A stretch of 49,460 bases of DNA. Origin: an uncultured Candidatus Saccharibacteria bacterium. Its GTDB lineage: Bacteria > Patescibacteriota > Minisyncoccia > Phycocordibacterales > JAKFXT01. Below, piece by piece: positions 11,737 through 48,546 of the stretch (the first letter of the stretch is position 1; each line of letters opens with the position of its first letter). A model generated the notes under the pieces. The model saw nothing but the letters and a program-made list of their open reading frames with translations. It was not told the origin of the DNA and did no database searches. The position numbers and the translations under genes were made by a program. The stretch covers positions 1-49,460 of the forward strand of contig CAYGDB010000001.1 in the NCBI GenBank assembly GCA_964348535.1. The letters run 5' to 3'.

Positions 11737-12876
11737 ATGACTGAAAAGAAACTTTTTATTATTTTCCATGGCCGTTTTCCAAGTGAAAAAGCGGCGTCTT
11801 TGTTTGCCGGCAAAAGCGCCGAGTCATTTGGGAGGGAGGGTATTGAGACCACTCTTATAGTTCCGAGAAGAATATCAAGGATGAGGACAGACCCTTATGA
11901 ATACTATAATCTGAAAAAGAATTTCAGGATTATTTATTTGCCGACCGTTGACCTATTTAACATACCCTTTTTAAGGGTCGTGGCTTTTGAAACAAGCTTT
12001 TTTATATTTTCGATATTGGTTTTTATGTTTTTGCTTTTCAAGGCCGGCAAAGAAGATTTCATATATTCAAACGAATCTCTGGTGATATATTTATCTTCTT
12101 TTTACTTCACTAATATTCTTTATGAATTGCACGATTTTCCAGAACGGAAAATATTTTTTTATAAAAGTTTGTTTAAAAGAGCAAGTCATATTTTGGTTAC
12201 TAATAAATGGAAGGTTGAAAAAACAGAAAGAGTTTTTGGCGTTCAAAAATCAAAAATGATTTTGGAAAGAAACGCGGTTGATATTGAAGAATTTGACATC
12301 CCTGTCAGTAAAGAAAAAGCCAGAGAAAAACTTGGACTGCCTTCGGGTAAAAAAATCGTTGTTTACACCGGACATCTTTACTCATGGAAAGGGGCGGATA
12401 CATTGGCCGAAACGGCAAAAAAATTGCCGAAAGCCTTGTTTGTCTTTGTCGGGGGAACACCGCTTGATATAAAGCGTTTTAAAGACACCTATGGCCACTT
12501 GGACAATATTTTAATAGTTGGCCACAAAGAACATTCTGAAATTCCGTATTGGCAGAAAGCGGCCGATGTTTTGGTTCTTCCAAATACCGCCAAAGAAGAT
12601 ATTTCAAAATTCTACACTTCCCCAATGAAACTTTTTGAATATATGGCAAGCGGAAGGCCTATAATCGCCTCCCGAATACCGTCCATTGTTGAAATTTTAA
12701 ATGATAAAAACTCCGTCCTTGTGGAGCCGGATAGCGTGGAGGCTCTGGCTTCGGCCATTTCTGATATTATTGATAATCAAGAAAAAGGGGAGACTCTCTC
12801 TTCTCAAGCCCGTATTGATGTTGAAGAATACGCTTGGGACAAGAGGGCTAAAAGAATCTTAGCTTTTATATCATGA
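11737..12876 (+). CDS. Glycosyltransferase family 4
   Basis: ORF 11728 starts at TTG; the ATG at 11737 gives MTEKKLFIIFHG. The C-terminal motif is YTSPMKLFEYMASGRPIIASRIPS. Confidence 0.85.
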   Translation: MTEKKLFIIFHGRFPSEKAASLFAGKSAESFGREGIETTLIVPRRISRMRTDPYEYYNLKKNFRIIYLPTVDLFNIPFLRVVAFETSFFIFSILVFMFLLFKAGKEDFIYSNESLVIYLSSFYFTNILYELHDFPERKIFFYKSLFKRASHILVTNKWKVEKTERVFGVQKSKMILERNAVDIEEFDIPVSKEKAREKLGLPSGKKIVVYTGHLYSWKGADTLAETAKKLPKALFVFVGGTPLDIKRFKDTYGHLDNILIVGHKEHSEIPYWQKAADVLVLPNTAKEDISKFYTSPMKLFEYMASGRPIIASRIPSIVEILNDKNSVLVEPDSVEALASAISDIIDNQEKGETLSSQARIDVEEYAWDKRAKRILAFIS

Positions 12877-15461
12877 CCACCATTACAAGAAAAGATATTT
12901 TTGCCGTTCTCGCGCTTCTGGTTTTTTCGGTTTTCATTTTTTATCCTGTTTTATTCGGCGGGAAAGTTTTTTCAGATGAAGAGCAGTTTGGTTTTTACTA
13001 CGCTACCTCCCATTACGTTAAACAATCAATTACTCAAGGAACATCTCTCCTGTGGAATAGTGGCCATTATGGCGGTGTGTCGGCGAGCCTGGATCAATTT
13101 GTTTCCGCTTGGTATCCGATTAACCGCCTGTTTTTTAGCCTTTTTGACGCCTTTACCGCTCATCACTTAAGTATCTTATTCGCCACTTTTTTTGGCCTCC
13201 TCTTTGCATATTGGTTCGGCAGAGCAAATAAGTGGCTGATTTCATCTTCAATTGTATTTTCAGCTTCTTATGTTTTGGCCACCACTTTCGGATGGCTCGC
13301 CATTGGCACTATTTCCGCCAACTCTTTTATAATAATGCCAGCCATGACTTTGGCGGTTTTAAAAATCAGACAAAATATAGTCCCTCGGGGCTTGCCCCGA
13401 GGGACTATATTAGCTCCTCGGCTCGGAAATGGAAACTCAAAGCAGTTTCCGTTTCTCTCGCTCTACGTCGCTAATAAGAATTTCGCGCTTTATTCCGTTT
13501 TGGGCGGTTTGGTTTTTGGTGTGGGACTTTTGGCGGGGTTTGTCCAAATAATTTTTTATGTTTGGCCCATGATTCTTTTGTATGCTTTGTTTCTTGACCG
13601 AGAAAGTTGGTCTCCGGCAGTTTCTTTTTTGAATAAATTTAGGGCCACGATTGGATTTTTCAGCATGTCTGTTATCGGAACTCTAATCGGGTTGAAACAG
13701 CTTATGCCATCGGTCTTTTTTATTGACAGAACAATAAGAACTTCAGATTACGCCATTCAAAATGCCACCCATCCTTCAGTCGTGGAATTTATTACATTTG
13801 TTCTGCCCGATTACATAAAAATCCCGTTTATTGGAGGAGGTTCGCATGGTTTTTACATTGGAGTGCTTCCCATTATTTTCGCCTTCATGGCTTTGGTTTT
13901 TTACAGGACAAGGACCACTTTGTTTTTCACAGCTCTTTATTTGATTGTTCTGGGATTTGCTTTTCATTTGCCGATTTTTTCTTGGTTAAACGAACATATC
14001 CCGCCTTACAGGAATATGGGAGGAAATTTCAGATGGATGGTGGCGGGCGCTTTTCCTCTGGCTTTTATAGGAGCCTCGGGTCTTGAAGGATTTCTGCGCT
14101 CTCCTGAAAGAATTTCTGATAAAGCAAAAAAGAACCTGCTAAAAATACTTGCTTTGATTTCATCGGTTGCCGTTCTGGGGACATTTTTGGTTGATTATTT
14201 TTTGAATTTATTAAAGACAAACTCTTCTCTTCAGATGAAAATTTTGGATAAGGTTTTTGTCGGCAGGGAAATGACGTTTCCCGTTGACCATTATCTAAAT
14301 ATTTTAAATCAGACCATAGACAGCTTTTTAGCAGTTTTTTCGTTTTCCAATCTTGAATACATTATCCCTGTTTTGCTCTGGCCTTTGGCGTTCTTGATTT
14401 TCTATTTTTTGGATAAATGGAGTTGGTTAAAGAAAAATATAAAATATGTATTGGTTGTTTTTGTATTGGCCAATACGGCTTTGGTTTTCTTTTTTCAGTT
14501 TGATGATAATTTAGTTTCAAAAAATCTTTTTACCGTTAAGCCGGAAATGGTTTCCTATCTTGAGAGCGCGGAAAAAAATCCGAATAGCTACAGGATTATG
14601 GGTTTTTTGTTGGGGGACGGACTATTTAGAGAAGTTCAAAGCAAAACTAAAATAAGCAAAGAAGTCGTAACCACTCTTCAAAGAGAATTATTGATAAATA
14701 ATTCAAACGTTTACTGGAACATTCAGAGAATGGATGGAATGGAGCCGTATAGAACGATGCGGCATAACAGACTTATTGACACTGTTATTTCTCAAGAAAA
14801 GTCTTCATTCGCCTTTGATATAAAAAAATTGCCTTCAAGCAGATTGGACAAGCTAAATAATTACGATGTTTTGATTCAGGTTTCTCTGGAAGAAAAGAAA
14901 AAGGACTTTTTGACCAAGCTTCCTCTTTTGTCCATGATGAATGTCAAATATATTTATTCTGTCTATGAACTTAACCACTCAAGCTTGGAAAAAAAGTACC
15001 AAAATGATTTGGAAGTTGGTGGTGGCGCAAAACTTCCGCTATACCTTTACGAAAATAAAAATGTTTTGCCTCGGGTTTACTTTGCTTTGAAGCCTGATTT
15101 TTTTGGTGGGGATGATTTGGCGCTTTTGGCAGAAATTTCCACAGCAAAAGATTTTTCCAAAAGAACACTTATTGAATGTAATAATTGTGAAAGTAAACCA
15201 TCCCAAGGGGGGAAGATAGAAATTGACAAGTATCAAAACGGTTACGTTGAAATGACTCTGGAGTCAAAGGGTGATAATTGGCTTGTTTTTAGTGAAAGCA
15301 GTATGCCGGGGTGGGTTGCCACAATTGACGGGAGAGAGGTTTCCATATACGATGCTAACTATATTTTCCAAGCTATTTTAGTTCCCGACGGTGAACATAA
15401 GATTGTCTTTGAATACAAGGATATTGTTGATTTGAAGCTTAAAGAGTACTTGGGGAAATAG
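12873..15461 (+). CDS. YfhO-family polytopic membrane glycosyltransferase (GT-C-like), copy 1
   Basis: 862 aa with many TM helices. YfhO-type C-terminal beta domain MPGWVATIDGREVSIYDANYIFQAILVPDGEHKIVFEYK. ATGA overlap with the upstream GT4 gene. Confidence 0.8.
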   Translation: MTTITRKDIFAVLALLVFSVFIFYPVLFGGKVFSDEEQFGFYYATSHYVKQSITQGTSLLWNSGHYGGVSASLDQFVSAWYPINRLFFSLFDAFTAHHLSILFATFFGLLFAYWFGRANKWLISSSIVFSASYVLATTFGWLAIGTISANSFIIMPAMTLAVLKIRQNIVPRGLPRGTILAPRLGNGNSKQFPFLSLYVANKNFALYSVLGGLVFGVGLLAGFVQIIFYVWPMILLYALFLDRESWSPAVSFLNKFRATIGFFSMSVIGTLIGLKQLMPSVFFIDRTIRTSDYAIQNATHPSVVEFITFVLPDYIKIPFIGGGSHGFYIGVLPIIFAFMALVFYRTRTTLFFTALYLIVLGFAFHLPIFSWLNEHIPPYRNMGGNFRWMVAGAFPLAFIGASGLEGFLRSPERISDKAKKNLLKILALISSVAVLGTFLVDYFLNLLKTNSSLQMKILDKVFVGREMTFPVDHYLNILNQTIDSFLAVFSFSNLEYIIPVLLWPLAFLIFYFLDKWSWLKKNIKYVLVVFVLANTALVFFFQFDDNLVSKNLFTVKPEMVSYLESAEKNPNSYRIMGFLLGDGLFREVQSKTKISKEVVTTLQRELLINNSNVYWNIQRMDGMEPYRTMRHNRLIDTVISQEKSSFAFDIKKLPSSRLDKLNNYDVLIQVSLEEKKKDFLTKLPLLSMMNVKYIYSVYELNHSSLEKKYQNDLEVGGGAKLPLYLYENKNVLPRVYFALKPDFFGGDDLALLAEISTAKDFSKRTLIECNNCESKPSQGGKIEIDKYQNGYVEMTLESKGDNWLVFSESSMPGWVATIDGREVSIYDANYIFQAILVPDGEHKIVFEYKDIVDLKLKEYLGK
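13375..13471 (+). repeat. Palindromic repeat element, copy 1, in frame inside the YfhO gene
   Basis: Perfect 16-bp stem ATATAGTCCCTCGGGG / CCCCGAGGGACTATAT with loop CTTG (13375-13410). A second hairpin lies at 13427-13454. Blocks CTCCTCGGCTCGGA (13414-13427) and CTCGCTCTACGTCGC (13457-13471) recur at 37910-37961. Confidence 0.7.
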
Positions 15462-22399: not shown

Positions 22400-24907
22400 A
22401 TGAAGTTTTTGCGAACTGCTTTTAAAACAATCTGCATGCGTGTTAGTAAGTCACCGCGTTTCGCCTTGCTCGCATTTTGGACAATATTGATTGGTATCGC
22501 GCTCTTTCCATTTTTATTTATGGGACGACTTTTTATTGATTCGGATGCCACACTATATTATTACCCTGTATTTGATTTTTACCATAAGGCAATTTTAAGC
22601 GGTTCGTCTTTTTTATGGAATCCTTCCATATTTCTTGGTTTTCCAACTTACTTGAGTCAATCCGCAGGATTTTTTGACCCGGTTAATTGGGTTTTGTTTC
22701 ATCTCCCGACATTTACCGCTTATCACTTGCGTCTTGCGCTAGACTTACTGCTGACGCTTGGTTTTTCCTATGGTGTTGGCAGAGAATTAAATCGCTCCAA
22801 ACTTGCCTCACTACTAATTGGCATGGGGTATATAATTGCTTTTAATTGGCGTTATCTTTCAAATATTGTAATTTTAAACAGCCTTTTTCTCTTGCCTTTT
22901 CTTTTTTATGGAGGATTTCGTCTATTTAGAGCTAAAACGGAACGACAACGTTGGTTATGGGTTTTTCTTATGGGGTTAGCTATAGGCTGGTCATTTATTT
23001 CAGGTTACGCCCAGTTTAATATATATGCATTGTTTGTTTTTGGTATTTTTTATATTTGGTATTTTTTCTCAATATTGTCAGTTGAAAAAAAAATATTGAA
23101 TTTGGTTCGATGGGCGTCTTACGCCGTCTCTATTATTGTCATCGGATTTTTAATTGGATTGCCGTCAATTCTTCCGGCATTAAAATTCACACCCCTTACA
23201 GTGCGTTCTGAAGGAGTTACCTATGAATTAGCAACATATAAAACAGTTGAGCCTGGTGACGTAATTTTATTCGCATTTCCGGATTATCTCTACTTCCCTT
23301 ATGTTTCCGATGGTCGGAAACCTTTATATGTTGGGGCTTTTCTTTTTATTCTTGCTTTGATAGCCACGCGTGAATTATTCCGCCGGCGTGTTGGTAATAT
23401 TCGGGCGTCGAATGAAATACGGATTATGGCTATTTTCATGGCGCTTTTTTTCTTCTGTTTTGTCGCTTCTTTAAAATGGTCTCCCATATATTATCTAATG
23501 CAGAAACTTCCCGTATTTGATTTGTTTCGTTTTCCATATAGGTGGATGTATTTGGGGGCGTGGTTTTTAGCGTGTCTTGGGGCATACGGGTTTGATTTCA
23601 TAAAAACTAATCCGACTTCCCGTTTCGTTAAACTTTTTTCATCAGTATTAATTTTTTTCGCGACAGCTTTTACATCCCTTGTGCTGGCGCTTAATTTTCT
23701 AGGAGAGCGTTCGTTTACATTTTTAGGGAATTTTTTACACCGCATATTGAGCCTTACGGCTTATGGTCATATGGGGCTGTATAAAGCTCCGGAACATTAT
23801 CGTGATGCCATAACTAGAGGTATGGAAGCATGGCGCGATTCACTGTCCCTTTCTGAGCCGACATTTTATGTTCCGTTTTTAATATTAATTTTCTCTATTG
23901 TTCTCTTATTTTCTCTGTCGCGCGGTCTGGTCTCGTCTAAAAGTTTTCTATTTTCAGGTTTTGTATTATCGGTGGTTACATTCCTTTCTGTTTTTATAGT
24001 GCAGTGGCCTAGGACTGTCTCTGTTGATGCCACAAATTTACATAATGCAACAGTTCAATCATTGCCGGACTTACAATCGGGGCAATATAGATACATGCCA
24101 TTTATGCTGTCTAAGGGTCTTCAATCTTATGTGCCTCCGCAATACAATTTATCTTTAAATGAAATACAATTGGTTGCCGAACTTCAATTTTCTTCAGGAT
24201 GGCCTAATATGAATCAATATGCGGGGGGTATGAGCATAGATGGATATGACCCATTCGTTTCAACCCGCTTGCTTGAAGTTTTAAATTTAATAGGCAGTAC
24301 TCACGGTGGAGAAGAGATGACGAAATTACTTTCTGAACAGGAAGTAAAAGATCGGTTGCTGAAACATCTTGGCATTGTTGGAGTCATGTCAGGTAAATAC
24401 ATACTCTCTGGAGTTCCTCTTGTTCACGAAAATCTCGGTCTTATAAGAACTGTACCAGTCTCACGCTACGGTATAAAAATGTATGTATACGAAAATAATT
24501 TTGTAGTGCCGCGCGTATATTTTGCCAGAGAGATTGTCAATAAGCCGAATGAATCACTGATTCAGTTGAATGAAGAGCGTTCTGATTTTAAAGCGAAAAC
24601 CTATCTCGATTGCGATAATTGCGTCAGTCATAAAAGTAACCAATTTGACGTTTTTAAGGTAATAAAAGATGATAACGGCATTATGGAGATTCATACCCAA
24701 ACAGTGGGACCAAGGTGGCTTGTTATTGGTGACAGTAATTTACCCGGTTGGAAATCCAATTTGGATGGAACTCCATCTCAAATCTTATCTGCCAATGGTC
24801 TGCAGATGGCCGTAGAGATTCCGGCTGGTAATCATACCGTTACATTAACTTATGTTGGGGTAATGGATGAATTAAGGGTATTAAAATTTCTTGGCGCGGT
24901 TAGATAG
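22400..24907 (+). CDS. YfhO-family polytopic membrane glycosyltransferase, copy 2
   Basis: 835 aa with many TM helices. C-terminal LPGWKSNLDGTPSQILSANGLQMAVEIPAGNHTVTLTY parallels copy 1. Confidence 0.75.
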   Translation: MKFLRTAFKTICMRVSKSPRFALLAFWTILIGIALFPFLFMGRLFIDSDATLYYYPVFDFYHKAILSGSSFLWNPSIFLGFPTYLSQSAGFFDPVNWVLFHLPTFTAYHLRLALDLLLTLGFSYGVGRELNRSKLASLLIGMGYIIAFNWRYLSNIVILNSLFLLPFLFYGGFRLFRAKTERQRWLWVFLMGLAIGWSFISGYAQFNIYALFVFGIFYIWYFFSILSVEKKILNLVRWASYAVSIIVIGFLIGLPSILPALKFTPLTVRSEGVTYELATYKTVEPGDVILFAFPDYLYFPYVSDGRKPLYVGAFLFILALIATRELFRRRVGNIRASNEIRIMAIFMALFFFCFVASLKWSPIYYLMQKLPVFDLFRFPYRWMYLGAWFLACLGAYGFDFIKTNPTSRFVKLFSSVLIFFATAFTSLVLALNFLGERSFTFLGNFLHRILSLTAYGHMGLYKAPEHYRDAITRGMEAWRDSLSLSEPTFYVPFLILIFSIVLLFSLSRGLVSSKSFLFSGFVLSVVTFLSVFIVQWPRTVSVDATNLHNATVQSLPDLQSGQYRYMPFMLSKGLQSYVPPQYNLSLNEIQLVAELQFSSGWPNMNQYAGGMSIDGYDPFVSTRLLEVLNLIGSTHGGEEMTKLLSEQEVKDRLLKHLGIVGVMSGKYILSGVPLVHENLGLIRTVPVSRYGIKMYVYENNFVVPRVYFAREIVNKPNESLIQLNEERSDFKAKTYLDCDNCVSHKSNQFDVFKVIKDDNGIMEIHTQTVGPRWLVIGDSNLPGWKSNLDGTPSQILSANGLQMAVEIPAGNHTVTLTYVGVMDELRVLKFLGAVR

Positions 24908-34328: not shown

Positions 34329-36485
34329 ATGAATATTAATCATTTTTTGCGCCGGGCTTTGATTGTGGGCGTCTTTTTTATCCCTTTCATTGTTTTAATC
34401 GTGCCGGGCAATATGTTTTTTCCTTTTATTACTGGGAAGAATTTTACTTTTAGGATTATTGTGGAAGTTCTCCTTGGCCTTTATCTGGCGCTTGCTCTAA
34501 GGGATTCTTCTTATCGACCCAGATTTTCTTGGTTGCTTGGTTCTTTCGCGATTTTTCTGGCCATTATAGGACTTGCCGATTTGTTGGGAGAAAATCCTTA
34601 TAAAAGTTTTTGGAGCAATTTTGAACGGATGGAGGGATACATAACTTTTCTCCATCTTTTTGCTTATTTTGTTATCGCGAGCGTCGTTTTCAACACGGAA
34701 AAACTTTGGGAGCGTCTTTTTCAAACGTCTTTGGTGGCAAGTGTTATTTTGGCCGGTTACGGTCTTCTCCAGGCCTTTGGCGTGCTTGCCATTCATCAGG
34801 GCTCAAGTCGGGTTGATGCTTCGCTCGGAAACTCTACCTATTTTGCCGTCTATGTCGTCATTCATATTTTCTTGGCGATGTTTCTTTTTCTCAAGCATAG
34901 AGAAATCTTGGGTTTGAAGATTTTTTACGGACTCTCCGTTCTTTTGAATCTTTTTATTTTGTATCAGACAGAAACTCGCGGCGCCATTATTGGATTTGTG
35001 GGCGGTATCTTTTTGACCGCCCTCATCATCGCCTTATTTGAAAAAGATGATAAGCGAACAAAAAAAATAGCAGTAGGTGGAGTGATTGGAATTATTGTCA
35101 TTGTCAGTCTTTTTATTACTTTTCGCGATTCTTCTTTTATTAAAGATAGTCGCACTTTTGGGCGTCTTGCCGGCATATCTTTAAGCGATGCTTATACCAA
35201 CCCCCGCATCCCGATCTGGACTCTTGCCTTTGAAGGATTTAAAGAGAAGCCGATTTTGGGATGGGGGCAGGAAAATTTTAATTACGTTTTCAATAAATAC
35301 TATACGCCGAATCTTTATCCGCAGGAGCAGTGGTTTGACCGCAGTCACAATATTATTCTCGACTGGCTTATAGCGGGCGGTATTTTGGGGTTGCTCGGAT
35401 ATCTCTCTCTTTATTTTCTTTCCCTTTTTTATATTTGGAAAAAAGGGGAATTCACTTTCAAAGAGAAAGCGGTTTTAACTGGTCTTTTCGGTGCTTATTT
35501 TTTCCACAACATCTTCGTTTTTGACCACCTCGTTTCTCTCATCCTTTTTGTAACTTTGTTTTCCTATCTTCATTCTCATTCAGTTCGCTCGAGGTTGGGG
35601 ATTCCAAAACCTGCCAAGTCTCCTAACCTTTGGCTTCAAAAATCAGCCCTTCCAGCCGGAATTATTTTATCTCTCGGTTTGGTTTATTTTATAAATTGGA
35701 ACGCTTATTCGGCAAATCTTAATCTCATAAAGGCCATAACGGTATCTCAAAAGCCAGAGGAAAGCATCGTGTTTTTCAAAAAGGCTCTTGGTTACGACGC
35801 TTTTGGAAATCAAGAAATTCGGGAACAGCTGATGCAGTACGCTATGAATATCAGAAATGCTCAAGTTCCCGATTCCGCAAAGCAAGAAATCGCCAAGTTG
35901 ACTGTCGAAGAAATGAAAAAAATGATAGAACAGGCGCCAAACGACCCGCGCCACTACCTTTTCTTTGGCAGTGTTTTAGACGCTTATGGTGATCCTGACG
36001 ATGGAGAAAAATATTTAACAAAAGCCCTTGAGCTTTCTCCAAAAAAACAATCCATTATTTTTCAGCTTGGCACTCATTATCTAAACATAGGCAACAAACA
36101 AAAAGCCCTTGAGCTTTTTAAGCAGGCCTATGACCTTGAGCCGAATTATCCGGAAGCAAAGTTGATTTACGCTATGGGAGCGATTTATGCTGGCAATAAT
36201 AAACTGGCGGAAGATCTGATAGGCAAAGAAATAGTTATCGACGACAGATTACTCCGTGCTTATGCGGATAATAAACAATTCAGCAAAGCGGCTGATATCA
36301 TAAAAGCTAAAATCGCTTTGAATCCAGGCGACATACAAACACGACTTACTCTGGCTGCTCTTTATTATCAGGCGGGACAGAAGAGTAATGCCGTCTCTGT
36401 TATTAAAGAAATCATCGCTCAAAATCCCGATTTTAAAACTCAGGGCGAGAGCTTCATCAAAGAAATACAAGCCGGGGGAATTTAG
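34329..36485 (+). CDS. O-antigen ligase (Wzy_C) domain membrane protein with C-terminal TPR repeats
   Basis: ORF 34185 overlaps gtrA; ATG 34329 (MNINHFLRR) is preferred. YQTETRGAIIGFVGG and RSHNIILDWLIAGGILG. TPR-like KALELSPKK...ALELFKQAYDLEPNYPEA. Confidence 0.8.
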   Translation: MNINHFLRRALIVGVFFIPFIVLIVPGNMFFPFITGKNFTFRIIVEVLLGLYLALALRDSSYRPRFSWLLGSFAIFLAIIGLADLLGENPYKSFWSNFERMEGYITFLHLFAYFVIASVVFNTEKLWERLFQTSLVASVILAGYGLLQAFGVLAIHQGSSRVDASLGNSTYFAVYVVIHIFLAMFLFLKHREILGLKIFYGLSVLLNLFILYQTETRGAIIGFVGGIFLTALIIALFEKDDKRTKKIAVGGVIGIIVIVSLFITFRDSSFIKDSRTFGRLAGISLSDAYTNPRIPIWTLAFEGFKEKPILGWGQENFNYVFNKYYTPNLYPQEQWFDRSHNIILDWLIAGGILGLLGYLSLYFLSLFYIWKKGEFTFKEKAVLTGLFGAYFFHNIFVFDHLVSLILFVTLFSYLHSHSVRSRLGIPKPAKSPNLWLQKSALPAGIILSLGLVYFINWNAYSANLNLIKAITVSQKPEESIVFFKKALGYDAFGNQEIREQLMQYAMNIRNAQVPDSAKQEIAKLTVEEMKKMIEQAPNDPRHYLFFGSVLDAYGDPDDGEKYLTKALELSPKKQSIIFQLGTHYLNIGNKQKALELFKQAYDLEPNYPEAKLIYAMGAIYAGNNKLAEDLIGKEIVIDDRLLRAYADNKQFSKAADIIKAKIALNPGDIQTRLTLAALYYQAGQKSNAVSVIKEIIAQNPDFKTQGESFIKEIQAGGI

Positions 36486-36486
36486 T

Positions 36487-36514
36487 TTGACTTATTTAAT
36501 ATTTTTGCTATACT
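36487..36514 (+). promoter_or_regulatory. Strong candidate promoter with extended -10
   Basis: TTGACT (36487-36492), 16-nt spacer, TGcTATACT (36506-36514). Confidence 0.6.
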
Positions 36515-36803
36515 CAAAGGCGTGAGTGCTGACGAATTGTTAGCTCTTAGAATATCTGCGTAGGGACCCGCTTCGGCGGGTCTTGACGTTTTATATACTG
36601 TGAATTACGAAACTCCTCGCAGGCGCATTTTTGTGAGACATTTCGCAGGCTGACGAGCCGAGAATAGCAAAAAATCAGCAGATTTTTATGCGCGTCGAGC
36701 AAAAAATTGCGCCAAGCAAAGAGTTTCGTAATTTTACGAATATAAGAAAGAATCTGCTATACTTTGGTAGTCCTTTCCAAAGAGGACTGACGGCTGCACT
36801 CAC
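36515..36803 (+). ncRNA. Candidate structured RNA / long structured murB leader, class unknown
   Basis: Nested helices: 36522-36529/36796-36803 (8 bp), 36603-36615/36721-36733 (13 bp), 36622-36632/36701-36713 (11 bp with one bulge). C(UUCG)G hairpin at 36565-36582. I see no convincing ORF. Confidence 0.35.
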
Positions 36804-36850
36804 ATAGATATTCTTTTGGAGCTCGCACCCGTCGGTCCTCTTTGGACGGT

Positions 36851-37891: not shown

Positions 37892-37961
37892 ATATATGTC
37901 CCTTATATACTCCTCAGCTCGGACGAAAAATCAGAATTTTCTGTCGCTCGCTCTACGTCGC
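37892..37961 (+). repeat. Palindromic repeat element, copy 2 (hairpin interior missing), intergenic
   Basis: ATATATGTCCCT|TATAT, CTCCTCAGCTCGGA (37910-37923) and CTCGCTCTACGTCGC (37947-37961) are colinear with copy 1 at 13375-13471. Confidence 0.65.
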
Positions 37962-37970
37962 ATATAAATT

Positions 37971-37991: not shown

Positions 37992-38007
37992 AATCAAACT
38001 TAAAAAG

Positions 38008-38016
38008 TTATCCACA
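38008..38016 (+). promoter_or_regulatory. Perfect DnaA-box consensus 9-mer TTATCCACA
   Basis: Exact match to the R1-type box in intergenic DNA. Protein binding is inference. Confidence 0.4.
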
Positions 38017-38174
38017 TTTTTTTTGAAAAAAATGTTGTGGCAATCTTTTAAATGTAAGATAATTATTTCAGTGATCGTTTGGTTGCAAAGCTTCTTTTTT
38101 AGAAACTTATTTCCTAAAGAAGATTAGGTCGGCAATCAATACGACCTTGGACTTAACAGTAAACATCTCCTATT

Positions 38175-38231
38175 ATGGCAGCAAAAAAGAAAAAGGCTAC
38201 TAAAAAAGTAGCTGCAAAGAAGAAGAGATAA
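38175..38231 (+). CDS. Candidate 18-aa lysine-rich micro-protein or leader peptide (MAAKKKKATKKVAAKKKR)
   Basis: ATG...TAA read directly. No Shine-Dalgarno. A perfect terminator starts 21 nt after the stop. A candidate promoter is TTGTGG (38035-38040)/GATAAT (38058-38063). Confidence 0.3.
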   Translation: MAAKKKKATKKVAAKKKR

Positions 38232-38251
38232 TATCTTTTCTCACTTTAAAC

Positions 38252-38290
38252 AAAACACCTTCGTCCTCGGACGAAGGTGTTTTGTTTTTT
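38252..38290 (+). terminator. Rho-independent terminator
   Basis: AAAACACCTTCGTCC (38252-38266) pairs with GGACGAAGGTGTTTT (38269-38283), then TTTGTTTTTT. Confidence 0.85.
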
Positions 38291-38295
38291 AGATA

Positions 38296-38335
38296 AATTA
38301 CTTTAATTTAGACGATTGTTAAAATTAAAGTAATT
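38296..38335. repeat. 14-bp perfect AT-rich inverted repeat in the secA upstream region
   Basis: AATTACTTTAATTT (38296-38309) / AAATTAAAGTAATT (38322-38335), 12-nt spacer. Confidence 0.8.
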
Positions 38336-38350
38336 ACGTTGTTCTCTCTG

Positions 38351-48106: not shown

Positions 48107-48208
48107 ATATAATAGTAAAAGTTAAGTGACGGCTAAAAGTTTTATTTTACAAGGCAAAAAGTTTATCTCTTCCAGACGAGTTACCGAGATAATAGGTTAC
48201 ACCAATGA
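48107..48208 (+). repeat. Direct repeat copy 1 (-10 element + 5' coding cassette)
   Basis: ATATAATAGTAAAAG... through ...GGTTACACCAATGA. I counted 5 mismatches over the 77 aligned coding nt against 48447-48546. Confidence 0.85.
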
Positions 48209-48446: not shown

Positions 48447-48546
48447 ATATAATAGTAAAAGCTACGATGGCTGAAAGTCTTATTTTACAAGGTAAAAAGT
48501 TTATCTCTTCCAGACGAGCTGCCGAGATAATAGGTTACACCAATGA
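48447..48546 (+). repeat. Direct repeat copy 2 (functional copy)
   Basis: See copy 1. It includes GATATAAT and the ATG at 48467. Confidence 0.85.

Follow-up and report, generated by a model that had tools for sequence, protein, structure and literature searches.

Positions 13377–13475 of the window (49,460 nucleotides of contig CAYGDB010000001.1 from an uncultured Candidatus Saccharibacteria bacterium) are a 99-nt insertion in a yfhO gene, and probably they are a copy of a non-autonomous mobile DNA repeat that occurs throughout the Patescibacteria and is translated here as a disordered loop. This copy lies on the plus strand, belongs to the short form of the repeat and adds 33 codons (IVPRGLPRGTILAPRLGNGNSKQFPFLSLYVAN) to the gene.

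The host gene (12873–15461, plus strand) is an intact 862-codon ORF of the yfhO family (PF09586). A sequence-only reading of this DNA had placed a perfect palindrome and a second hairpin inside the ORF without a frame break, and both are there. The palindrome (13375–13390 with 13395–13410, loop CTTG) is perfect and its stem reaches 17 bp if A13374 and T13411 are counted, the second hairpin (13427–13454) is contained in 13426–13455 and has 12–13 bp including G.T pairs, and there is no stop in 12873–15461, where the hairpins encode the peptide ...QNIVPRGLPRGTILAPRLGNGNSKQFPFLSLYVANKN.... The host protein matches PF09586, as do most of its top 57 homologues, and it is colinear with the family over its full length, with 50 invariant columns in the full-length alignment. 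It is a glycosyltransferase-like membrane protein. Its AlphaFold2 model has a pLDDT of 83.6, and the lowest-confidence part, residues 171–192, is inside the insert and is the only segment with a pLDDT below 50. Compared with relative L001, the gene has a dN/dS of 0.155 (codons 115–744) and a dS of 0.23. By this dN/dS, yfhO has stayed under purifying selection since it received the insert; together with the confinement of the predicted disorder to the insert, this indicates that the gene is still functional.

The 99-nt segment is a clean gap in L002 and in the syntenic L003, which confirmed the absence that the sequence-only reading had proposed to look for in orthologues. The boundary is ambiguous by a 4-nt direct repeat, AATA (13374–13377 and 13473–13476), and the reconstructed empty site reads ...CAAAATAAGAAT.... 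The 33 amino acids are missing from 17 orthologues (one of them syntenic) and are present in the nearest relative only; they are also missing from the paralogue at 22400, which has just a short loop at this place, as had been noted, and the orthologues are likewise short. A loop carried by all orthologues, with no further copies elsewhere, had been named as the outcome that would speak against a mobile element; instead the loop is rare and the copies are many. L001 is an independent assembly from another project (NCBI GCA_964350205.1), and it has the identical insertion at the same codon while its flanks differ by 7%. The insert shows zero substitutions between the window and L001 despite the dS of 0.23, and the longest difference-free run between them (159 nt) is centred on the insert. 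This 100% identity fits nucleotide-level constraint or a recent recombinational transfer equally with an old shared insertion.

From the open frame we infer that the repeat is translated as an extra 33-residue loop of YfhO. The length of the copy is divisible by three, and a P2 module of 50 nt, in place of the usual 48 nt, brings the 3' end of the copy into a stop-free frame, so that yfhO is left open. The loop is between TM4 and TM5 and is predicted to be disordered. The earlier suggestion of a new loop in a surface-glycosylation enzyme holds, with the amendment that the loop is probably on the cytoplasmic side and not at the cell surface, according to the AlphaFold2 model, the GT-C topology and the positive-inside rule. 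The predicted tryptic peptides of the insert are GLPR, GTILAPR, LGNGNSK, and QFPFLSLYVANK.

A second copy is in the murB–secA spacer of the window (37892–37966, plus strand), where hairpin Ha has been deleted. With covariance model R1, the yfhO copy scores 83.7 bits and copy 2 scores 63.9 bits, and the rest of the window scores at most 16 bits. The colinear blocks that had been described at 37892–37961 are real: the window contains exactly two occurrences of the 15-mer CTCGCTCTACGTCGC, where chance would give 0.00, and CTCCTCRGCTCGGA is also present twice, with 0.21 expected. Relative L125 has a fuller copy at the same murB–secA site, with 27 more nucleotides that form Ha. The element is missing from the murB–secA spacers of L126 and L127, and as these spacers are unalignable they gave no clean empty site for copy 2.

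Copies of the repeat are 95–160 nt long and lack both an ORF and terminal inverted repeats. At the 5' end the consensus reads AATAAAGGTTCCTCGG and at the 3' end ...CTCTACGTCGCTAATAA (reverse complement TTATTAGCGACGTAGAG); the similarity of the two ends is limited to the AT-rich repeat. In the yfhO copy, helix P0 is stacked on hairpin Ha, and together they form the perfect 17-bp palindrome with the CTTG loop (13374–13411). P0 covaries, as a 9-nt complement is found upstream in 32 of 88 copies and in only 1 of 88 in the downstream control. The central tract GGACTATATTAGC (13402–13414, plus strand) serves two helices: with its 5' part it supplies the 3' strand of P0, and with its 3' part, TATTAGC (13408–13414), the 5' strand of P1. 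The tract is also complementary to the 3' end joined to the 5' end (GCTAATATAGTCC). Hairpin P2 (13426–13455), the second hairpin mentioned above, is variable in sequence and length. It is flanked by two unpaired tracts, tract A (TCCTCGGCTCG(GA), 13415–13425, plus strand) and tract B (TCTCGCTCTACGTC, 13456–13469, plus strand), which are nearly invariant across the family in alignment A3, although part of this near-invariance is ascertainment, as the search pattern required 21 exact bases. The TCCTCGG of tract A is at least 90% conserved though it was outside the search pattern, and natural variants of tract B are single substitutions only. The 3' strand of P1, GCTAATA (13470–13476, plus strand), is followed by the conserved target TAA/A, and its middle triplet covaries with 13409–13411. 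The hairpins and colinear blocks of the sequence-only reading are real but are not separate units; they are modules and the two nearly invariant tracts of one larger architecture. Folding of the 116-nt segment, a calculation that had also been proposed, gave −51.4 kcal/mol (z = −7.6), and none of 200 shuffles was as stable. Folded as a circle, the 99-nt insert forms a continuous P1+P0+Ha helix, or rod (z = −9.7). The predicted junction sequence of a circle or tandem is ...CTACGTCGCTAATATAGTCCC....

The paired regions covary. Double changes were found at 9 of the 11 pairs of P2, in 230 cells against 57 in shuffles, and none of 500 shuffles reached 230. For P2 and P1 together, 88.6% of cells are paired compared with 42–51% when the partner is slid, a value equalled by none of 500 shuffles. 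P1 exists as TTAGC/GCTAA, TTGGC/GCCAA, CTGGC/GCCAG, CGAGC/GCTCG, and CCGGCG/CGCCGG. G.T and A.C mismatches are about equally frequent (25 and 36 in P2, 28 and 22 in P1), with no excess of G.U that would mark one of the strands as RNA. Direct repeats of 3–8 nt with the core RTAA/AATA are found at the ends of copies, where AT-rich flanks blur the limits, and by sequence a true target-site duplication would look the same as a preference for targets resembling the element's own junction.

A pattern scan gave at least 118 stretches. Among the matches listed, about 100 are true copies in MAGs labelled as Patescibacteria, with several per MAG, and the covariance model recovered further diverged copies. 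The MAG labels include Saccharibacteria, Doudna-, Kaiser-, Yonath-, Komeili-, Nomura-, Shapiro-, Taylor-, Buchanan-, and Azambacteria, Paceibacteria, and others. The small mobile palindromic family proposed earlier stands as a repeat family that recurs in frame in other genes, but it is not restricted to "this lineage". The short-form 5' module of the yfhO copy was also found downstream of cysS in two other metagenomes. Deletion variants and nested-insertion variants of the repeat exist. Most copies (83%) are outside ORFs, while 81% of the bases are in ORFs (p = 3e-47), and the gene-orientation classes around copies (24/18/18/17) show no bias. Neighbour gene families recur at no more than 4 of about 100 loci, the 8-kb loci showed neither a transposase nor a recombinase beside any copy, and there were no matches to the repeat among viral contigs (IMG/VR) or plasmids (PLSDB). 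Neither empty/filled polymorphism within one population nor a free circle or junction read was seen. A 37-aa protein query against 1.84 billion representatives gave three matches, two short ORFs over other copies and one repeat protein; the repeat also seeds spurious small ORFs (P0193 and P0194). The window has no match in Rfam 15 at the gathering score and only generic hairpin matches at E ≤ 10, the consensus-like copy L101 has no Rfam match, and exact-sequence and keyword searches of the literature did not find the repeat. Since neither Rfam nor the literature contained a match, the family is apparently undescribed.

In addition to yfhO, tsaD contains a 150-nt in-frame copy, at which the query advances by 62 residues and the reference by 12 in the PDB alignment. 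A DUF1905 gene contains a 108-nt in-frame copy. In all three genes a palindromic repeat of about 100–150 nt is in frame and is absent from the orthologues. The three copies (99, 108, and 150 nt) are all multiples of three and free of stops, although one of the three frames of the repeat ends in TAA TAA. Such a filter would be expected of translated copies and not otherwise. Genic copies make up about 3% of those sampled. Three copies apparently inside ORFs (L037, L056, L086) are start-codon artefacts, and five more (L013, L024, L043, L058, L074) are in ORFs with a weak Pfam match or none.

The route by which the family moves can be proposed from its sequence features. The repeat entered yfhO at an AATA(A) site, probably before this organism and its nearest sampled relative had split. 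An internal tract that can pair both with the 5' end and with the 3' end extended by the direct repeat would let a single-stranded or circular form fold as one continuous rod bearing the two invariant unpaired tracts. As the ends are asymmetric and lack terminal inverted repeats, a direct repeat of 4–5 nt and of the RTAA type flanks each copy and the tract is complementary to the ends, insertion may be structure-dependent and mediated by a single strand or a circle. Catalysis would be in trans, by an enzyme encoded elsewhere, such as an HUH/Y1-type enzyme or a tyrosine recombinase. We put forward, as a speculative extension, that the repeats are substrates of a Patescibacteria-wide mobilisation system, with a guide-like tract pairing with their own joined ends and with RTAA-type targets within a single-stranded or circular rod of about 100 nt, or else that they have been domesticated with a host function. 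If the guide-tract rod is true, it would be a new class of structure-guided non-autonomous element. That the central tract can pair with the joined ends gives a testable model for mobility without terminal inverted repeats. If the repeats are domesticated, they would have been kept throughout a superphylum whose ultra-small genomes are usually deemed poor in mobile DNA.

There is a modest chance that the primary role of the family is a host function, as a structured nucleic-acid module, and that the yfhO copy is an incidental insertion. It could be a binding site for a Patescibacteria-wide protein, a REP-like mRNA stabiliser or a small RNA, and it could be both mobile and functional. The unpaired tracts of 11–14 nt are nearly invariant across MAGs of different class labels while the surrounding helices covary; conservation of this depth would be uncommon in a non-autonomous repeat that is purely selfish, and it may point to a host function, as may the absence of the family from viral contigs and plasmids and the unchanged insert in yfhO. 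Against this, copies show no orientation bias relative to their neighbours, no associated gene family and no Rfam match, neither strand is marked as RNA by its mismatches, copies decay by deletion, and some have inserted inside essential genes. It is very improbable that the element is taken out of the RNA as a mini-intron or skipped by a translational hop, giving YfhO without the 33 residues. The structure is very stable (−51 kcal/mol), and insertions excised from rRNA have been reported in CPR bacteria, but the genic copies carry the mark of a translation filter, no ribozyme or intron family matched, and self-splicing introns are far longer than 99 nt.

An ancestral or adaptive loop that arose by ordinary protein evolution, with a coincidental likeness to the 37.9-kb site, agrees with the purifying selection on yfhO. 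We consider it extremely improbable, as the loop is missing in the 17 orthologues and the paralogue, the same architecture of about 100 nt is found at about 100 unrelated and mostly non-coding places among the matches listed, and a shared 15-mer is not expected by chance in the window. Contigs of related samples end at or inside repeat copies, and so an assembly or chimera artefact might have placed the repeat in yfhO; this is hardly credible given the identical insertion in the independent assembly of L001, with its different flanks, and the preserved reading frame.

Several other identities were rejected. A cis-regulatory RNA or riboswitch does not fit the lack of a shared neighbour family and the four about equal orientation classes. 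There is no T-run after P2 and gene ends are not preferred, so P2 is not a terminator; the minus strand of Ha and P0 alone is terminator-like, which gave a chance partial match to His_leader. Known ribozymes, sRNAs, tRNAs, and tmRNAs were excluded by Rfam 15 and ARAGORN, which found no tRNA or tmRNA. An inverted pair of copies in L059 encloses small genes only, none of them recognisable as a transposase, and this is not a composite transposon or a RAYT. Same-orientation neighbouring copies flank housekeeping genes and are not integron-like arrays. The lack of matches in IMG/VR and PLSDB spoke against a phage or plasmid vector. An oriT was dropped because relaxases are rare in CPR bacteria (10.1101/2025.01.22.634366).

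The repeats would be a case of selfish DNA becoming a protein loop, as in RPEs, in a second and unrelated group of reduced host-dependent bacteria, with the essential gene tsaD included. The almost fixed core across many Patescibacteria classes, by MAG labels, implies a conserved trans-acting partner. In practice, the repeats cause broken assemblies, spurious small ORFs and odd inserts in otherwise conserved proteins.

Among known repeats, DDE-type MITEs (Correia, Nezha, Stowaway-/Tourist-like) are also non-autonomous, interspersed and about 100–150 nt long, with an AT-rich target, a short direct repeat and occasional in-frame genic copies. However, the ends of the present repeat are not mutual inverted repeats (AAGGTTCC... 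against the reverse complement AGCGACGTAG...), the direct repeat, blurred by the AT-rich flanks, appears not to have a fixed length, and no parent IS came to light. Integron attC sites and IMEX, which are folded single-strand recombination substrates, have in common with the repeat imperfect hairpins, stems conserved in structure and not in sequence, unpaired central tracts, and a recombination point that here would likewise lie within a stem joining both ends of a circular unit. They differ in that RYYYAAC/GTTRRRY core sites, cassette arrays and a nearby intI are lacking here; P1 reads (T)ATTAGC/GCTAAT(A), neighbouring copies lie around housekeeping genes and not cassettes, and the insertion sites are many and dispersed and are not attI or dif.

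PATEs derived from IS200/IS605 also have no terminal inverted repeats and a differing subterminal hairpin at each end, and for both, an internal guide-like tract could conceivably recognise ends and target by base pairing. On the minus strand, about 17 nt separate the left end from P2 and about 10 nt separate Ha from the right end, a spacing close to that of IS608. The junction TAA/TTA is conserved here but comes with a direct repeat flanking the copies, whereas IS200/IS605 makes none; moreover, the two hairpins are unlike, the end pairing is an ordinary antiparallel helix of 7–11 bp, and no TnpA/TnpB partner was found in the 8-kb loci. REPs and REPINs (RAYT, HUH Y1) are likewise short, extragenic, hairpin-forming, multi-copy repeats, missing from plasmids and phages and long-lived within a lineage, and their GTAG tetranucleotide is present here as the complement of CTAC in tract B. 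However, this GTAG stands 8 nt away from the foot of the hairpin, within a longer invariant tract, the copies are not built as inverted doublets of one unit, tract A is unrelated to the reverse complement of tract B, and no RAYT-like gene, REP-flanked or otherwise, was found in the 8-kb flanks. Moreover, REPs are species-specific, while the core here is common to MAGs of different class labels.

The repeat resembles Rickettsia palindromic elements (RPEs), as the sequence-only reading had suggested; the likeness is in behaviour only, and homology is not claimed. The present family belongs to another host superphylum, has two nearly invariant unpaired tracts, short and long modular forms and an end-complementary central tract, and has about 3% of its sampled copies in genes. 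Nevertheless, both are palindromic, ORF-less, interspersed repeats of about 100–150 nt with no known transposase in the reduced genomes of host-dependent bacteria, and, as in RPEs, the in-frame genic copies would be read through as extra loops.

On sequence comparison, 33 residues of the YfhO-family (PF09586) protein encoded at 12873-15461 are an insertion, corresponding to 99 nt at 13377-13475. A search of 5.8 billion proteins gave 57 full-length YfhO-family orthologues, and 18 of them were aligned together with the window's paralogue at 22400. The sequence-only reading had proposed that a palindromic element was inserted here in frame, and the alignment agrees: the residues (IVPRGLPRGTILAPRLGNGNSKQFPFLSLYVAN) were present only in the window and in its closest relative (P0001, 88% identity), and they were missing from P0002 (61%), P0003 (53%), 15 more distant orthologues, and the paralogue. 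P0003 is a true orthologue, since its contig (L003) keeps identical flanking gene order. The DNA comparison has a single clean 99-nt gap, whose boundary is uncertain only within the 4-nt direct repeat AATA (13374-13377, 13473-13476). An assembly artefact was ruled out because the independent NCBI assembly of the nearest relative (L001, GCA_964350205.1) carries the identical insertion. Glycosyltransferase, methyltransferase, sugar-nucleotide, and Wzy/flippase-like genes, all in one orientation, form a single cluster over nearly the entire left two-thirds of the window (1-36500), which is syntenic with L003. Among them are the two yfhO paralogues, which are divergent (12873 and 22400, 25% identity).

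The structures reported earlier were recovered. The palindrome has a perfect 16-bp stem (13375-13390/13395-13410) with the loop CTTG, or 17 bp counting A13374/T13411, a second hairpin spans 13426-13455, and the 862-codon ORF holds both with no stop codon. The 116-nt segment folded as RNA at -51.4 kcal/mol (z = -7.6), more stably than every one of 200 dinucleotide shuffles; its complementary strand, folded as DNA, had z = -6.1. The blocks said to be common to this segment and 37892-37961 are well above chance, as the 15-mer CTCGCTCTACGTCGC has two exact occurrences in the window versus 0.00 expected, and CTCCTCRGCTCGGA has two versus 0.21. A covariance model from 95 copies of the family found exactly two strong copies in the window (83.7 and 63.9 bits). 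A weak 16-bit match at 36625-36681 (-) includes TTCTCGGCTCG. It is in a gene-free stretch of 360 nt (36485-36842) where a promoter-like TTGACT-N17-TATACT is accompanied by several stable hairpins (e.g., 36561-36583, and 36776-36797 pairing with 36825-36846), and which may be a gene for a small RNA or a copy that has degenerated strongly. Near the window end there is also an 81-nt direct repeat (48128-48208 and 48466-48546, 93% identical, 338 nt apart), which may represent a duplicated module or two small paralogous genes side by side.

We scanned 185,579 species-representative genomes for CTCGGA of one nearly invariant stretch (tract A) followed, after a 10-40-nt gap, by the 15-mer of another (tract B), and at least 118 stretches matched. 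About a dozen of the matches listed were chance matches in high-GC genomes. The remaining ones were true copies from low-GC MAGs, labelled Saccharibacteria, Doudna-, Kaiser-, Yonath-, Komeili-, Nomura-, Shapiro-, Taylor-, Buchanan-, and Azambacteria, Paceibacteria or Paceibacterota, and 'Patescibacteria group'; a few low-GC bins are recorded as Gammaproteobacteria, Roseivirgaceae, or Planctomycetia. Several MAGs among the matches listed have three to eight copies (e.g., Doudnabacteria MAG palsa_1336). Thus, the mobile palindromic family suggested earlier does have many further copies, but it is not confined to one lineage. The covariance model also picked up diverged copies in the fetched loci, with single substitutions in both tracts, and therefore the apparent invariance is partly ascertainment from the exact-match pattern. 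No family match was found in 2.9 million viral contigs, in PLSDB plasmids, or in Rfam 15 at gathering and permissive thresholds.

Read on the plus strand as in the window, a copy starts with a direct repeat, AATA(A) in AT-type copies and GTAA(A) in GC-richer ones. It is followed by the 5' strand of helix P0 (AAGGTTC, TAGGCC, TAGTCC, AACCGGC, and others), hairpin Ha (frequently CTCGGGGCAAGCCCCGAG) and, in long copies only, GTATTAT-CGGAACTCGCTTCGCTCGT and a second hairpin. Next come a central tract (e.g., CCTATATTAGC), whose left part closes P0 and whose right part opens P1, the unpaired tract A (TCCTCGGCTCG), hairpin P2 (11-13 bp, free in sequence and length), and the unpaired tract B (TCNCTCGCTCTACGTC). 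The 3' end consists of the P1 3' strand (GC+NNN) and a second direct repeat with conserved TAA, occasionally TAG. Covariation supports both P2 and P1: 88.6% of cells were paired, compared with 42-51% when the partner was slid by 1-3 columns. There were 230 double-change cells versus 57 in shuffles, and none of 500 shuffles attained the observed value. For P0, a 9-nt upstream complement with at most one mismatch was found in 32 of 88 copies versus one of 88 in the downstream control; its spacing is 11-44 nt in the short form and 68-79 nt in the long form, and the paired sequences clearly covary.

The yfhO copy is of the short form, in which P0 stacked on Ha makes the perfect palindrome. Two further metagenome contigs have its 5' module downstream of cysS, and long-form copies (e.g., in locus L063) have it at their ends; it is therefore a propagating variant and not a local accident. 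Since P0 and P1 use overlapping parts of the central tract, both ends of a copy are complementary to it, and the 3' end joined to the 5' end over one direct repeat (GCT-AATA-TAGTCC) is its exact reverse complement. Folded as a circle, the 99-nt insert forms a continuous P1+P0+Ha helix, then an A/B internal loop, then P2 (z = -9.7), and a 150-nt copy in tsaD folds similarly. In one structural variant (L031, 97-228, -) a second hairpin is nested within tract A. Head-to-tail tandem copies are present in loci L099 (5636-5848, -), L015 (1086-1233, -), and L105, and in the first two each unit has its 3' P1 strand paired with the 5' P1 strand of the unit after it.

Among the matches listed, 92 of 111 copies do not overlap any ORF of 110 aa or more, even though such ORFs take up 81% of the bases in those loci (p = 3e-47). 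The four classes of flanking-gene orientation are about equal (24, 18, 18, and 17), and no neighbouring protein family recurs near more than four of about 100 copies, again among the matches listed. No linked transposase was found in the 8-kb flanks. The helices contain G.T and A.C mismatches in roughly equal numbers, and therefore no transcribed strand is singled out. Copies also decay: copy 2 of the window, in the murB-secA spacer (37892-37966), is without 27 nt of Ha that a relative (L125) keeps at the same site. Contigs from related samples terminate inside or beside copies, so the repeat evidently breaks short-read assemblies; contigs L123 (1-70), L124, and L125 (4329-4423), from sister samples and a relative, start or end in or next to the murB-secA copy. 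Such behaviour is the signature of interspersed, non-autonomous mobile DNA that is selected against in genes. A gene-specific regulatory RNA was rejected, as it does not fit the ORF avoidance, orientations, neighbours, mismatches, decay, contig breaks, and tandems of the copies listed. On the 3' side of copy 2, the spacer (38000-38340) is strongly conserved in L127 and L126, two relatives that differ elsewhere. A promoter-like TTGTGG...TAAGATAAT is found there, together with a conserved ~130-nt leader that includes the hairpin GGTCGGCAATCAATACGACC, a very short ORF for a lysine-rich peptide (MAAKKKKATKKVAAAKKKR*), and a terminator hairpin rich in GC; the spacer has no Rfam match.

Most copies that seemed to be inside ORFs were start-codon artefacts or in ORFs without a family match, but two beyond yfhO are real. 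In locus L071, tsaD is interrupted by a 150-nt GC-type copy flanked by the direct repeat GTAAAC; against TsaD in the PDB, the query goes from 2-54 to 116-133 while the reference moves only from 282 to 294. In L082, a DUF1905 domain is split by a 108-nt copy with the flanks AATAAAGG. Both are read in a frame (…SSARK…FSRSTS…) that differs from that of the window copy (…APRLGN…FLSLYVAN…); read in the third frame, the consensus terminates with CGC TAA TAA. Genic copies might instead be removed at the RNA level, but all three have lengths divisible by three and no stops, the filter expected if they are translated, which argues against removal. A protein-level census in the window's frame yielded no more than a repeat protein and two short ORFs that overlie other copies, and therefore translated copies are rare, ~3% of the copies sampled among the matches listed.

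Compared with L001, codons 115-744 of yfhO have a dN/dS of 0.155 (dS 0.21), indicating that the gene has been under purifying selection ever since the two lineages split. An AlphaFold2 model (mean pLDDT 83.6, pTM 0.85) has a single segment with pLDDT <50, residues 171-192 within the insert, between helices 146-167 and 193-221, and the final insert residues are modelled as extending the next helix. The insert is probably in the short K/R-rich TM4-TM5 loop on the cytoplasmic side, because the positive N-terminus would be inside and the DEEQ-bearing first loop outside, as in GT-C enzymes. Thus, a loop was added to the enzyme as suggested earlier, but the predicted topology places it inside the cell rather than at the surface. 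Over 2.2 kb, 7.1% of sites differ between the window and L001, yet the insert is at the centre of the longest run without a difference (159 nt, 13337-13496). Only 0.0013 such runs are expected, and ~5.5 synonymous changes are expected within the insert alone. This implies either constraint on the element as DNA or RNA or a recent exchange of the segment between lineages. The first ~350 nt of yfhO (12873-13215) are only ~55-60% identical to L001 744-1090 and the remainder ~93%, pointing to recombination within the gene. Since this part is clearly mosaic, recent exchange is plausible.

Copies are asymmetric at their ends and lack an ORF, their direct repeat has an RTAA core and a length of 3-8 nt, and the targets of the three genic copies look like the element's own junction. 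Because of these features and the end-to-centre complementarity, we propose that a trans-acting enzyme inserts a folded single strand or small circle at RTAA sites and that the two nearly invariant unpaired tracts would be its recognition surface. The obvious candidates are an HUH/Y1 enzyme of the IS200/IS605 or RAYT type and a tyrosine recombinase that works on folded substrates (attC-/IMEX-like), neither of which was found in the 8-kb flanks of copies. A published study reports that CPR have few relaxases (10.1101/2025.01.22.634366). The conserved tracts may also serve a host function, which would be compatible with mobility.

The earlier finding is real and its interpretation, with these amendments, is supported. 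In 8 million full-text papers, nothing relevant on the family was found by its 15-mers or by subject. What is worth following is a superphylum-wide, apparently undescribed family with a guide-like architecture and a presumed partner enzyme. In-frame insertion of a repeat into a gene is by itself a known type of event. The family has no terminal inverted repeats, unlike DDE-type MITEs; it is not an inverted doublet and no RAYT was found in the 8-kb flanks, unlike REPINs; it has no core sites or arrays, unlike attC sites; and it resembles IS200/IS605-derived PATEs only in part. In behaviour, Rickettsia palindromic elements are the closest. We class the family with a known kind of element, the small palindromic repeats that are non-autonomous and can be translated; the family itself appears to be undescribed, and its conservation is unusually wide.
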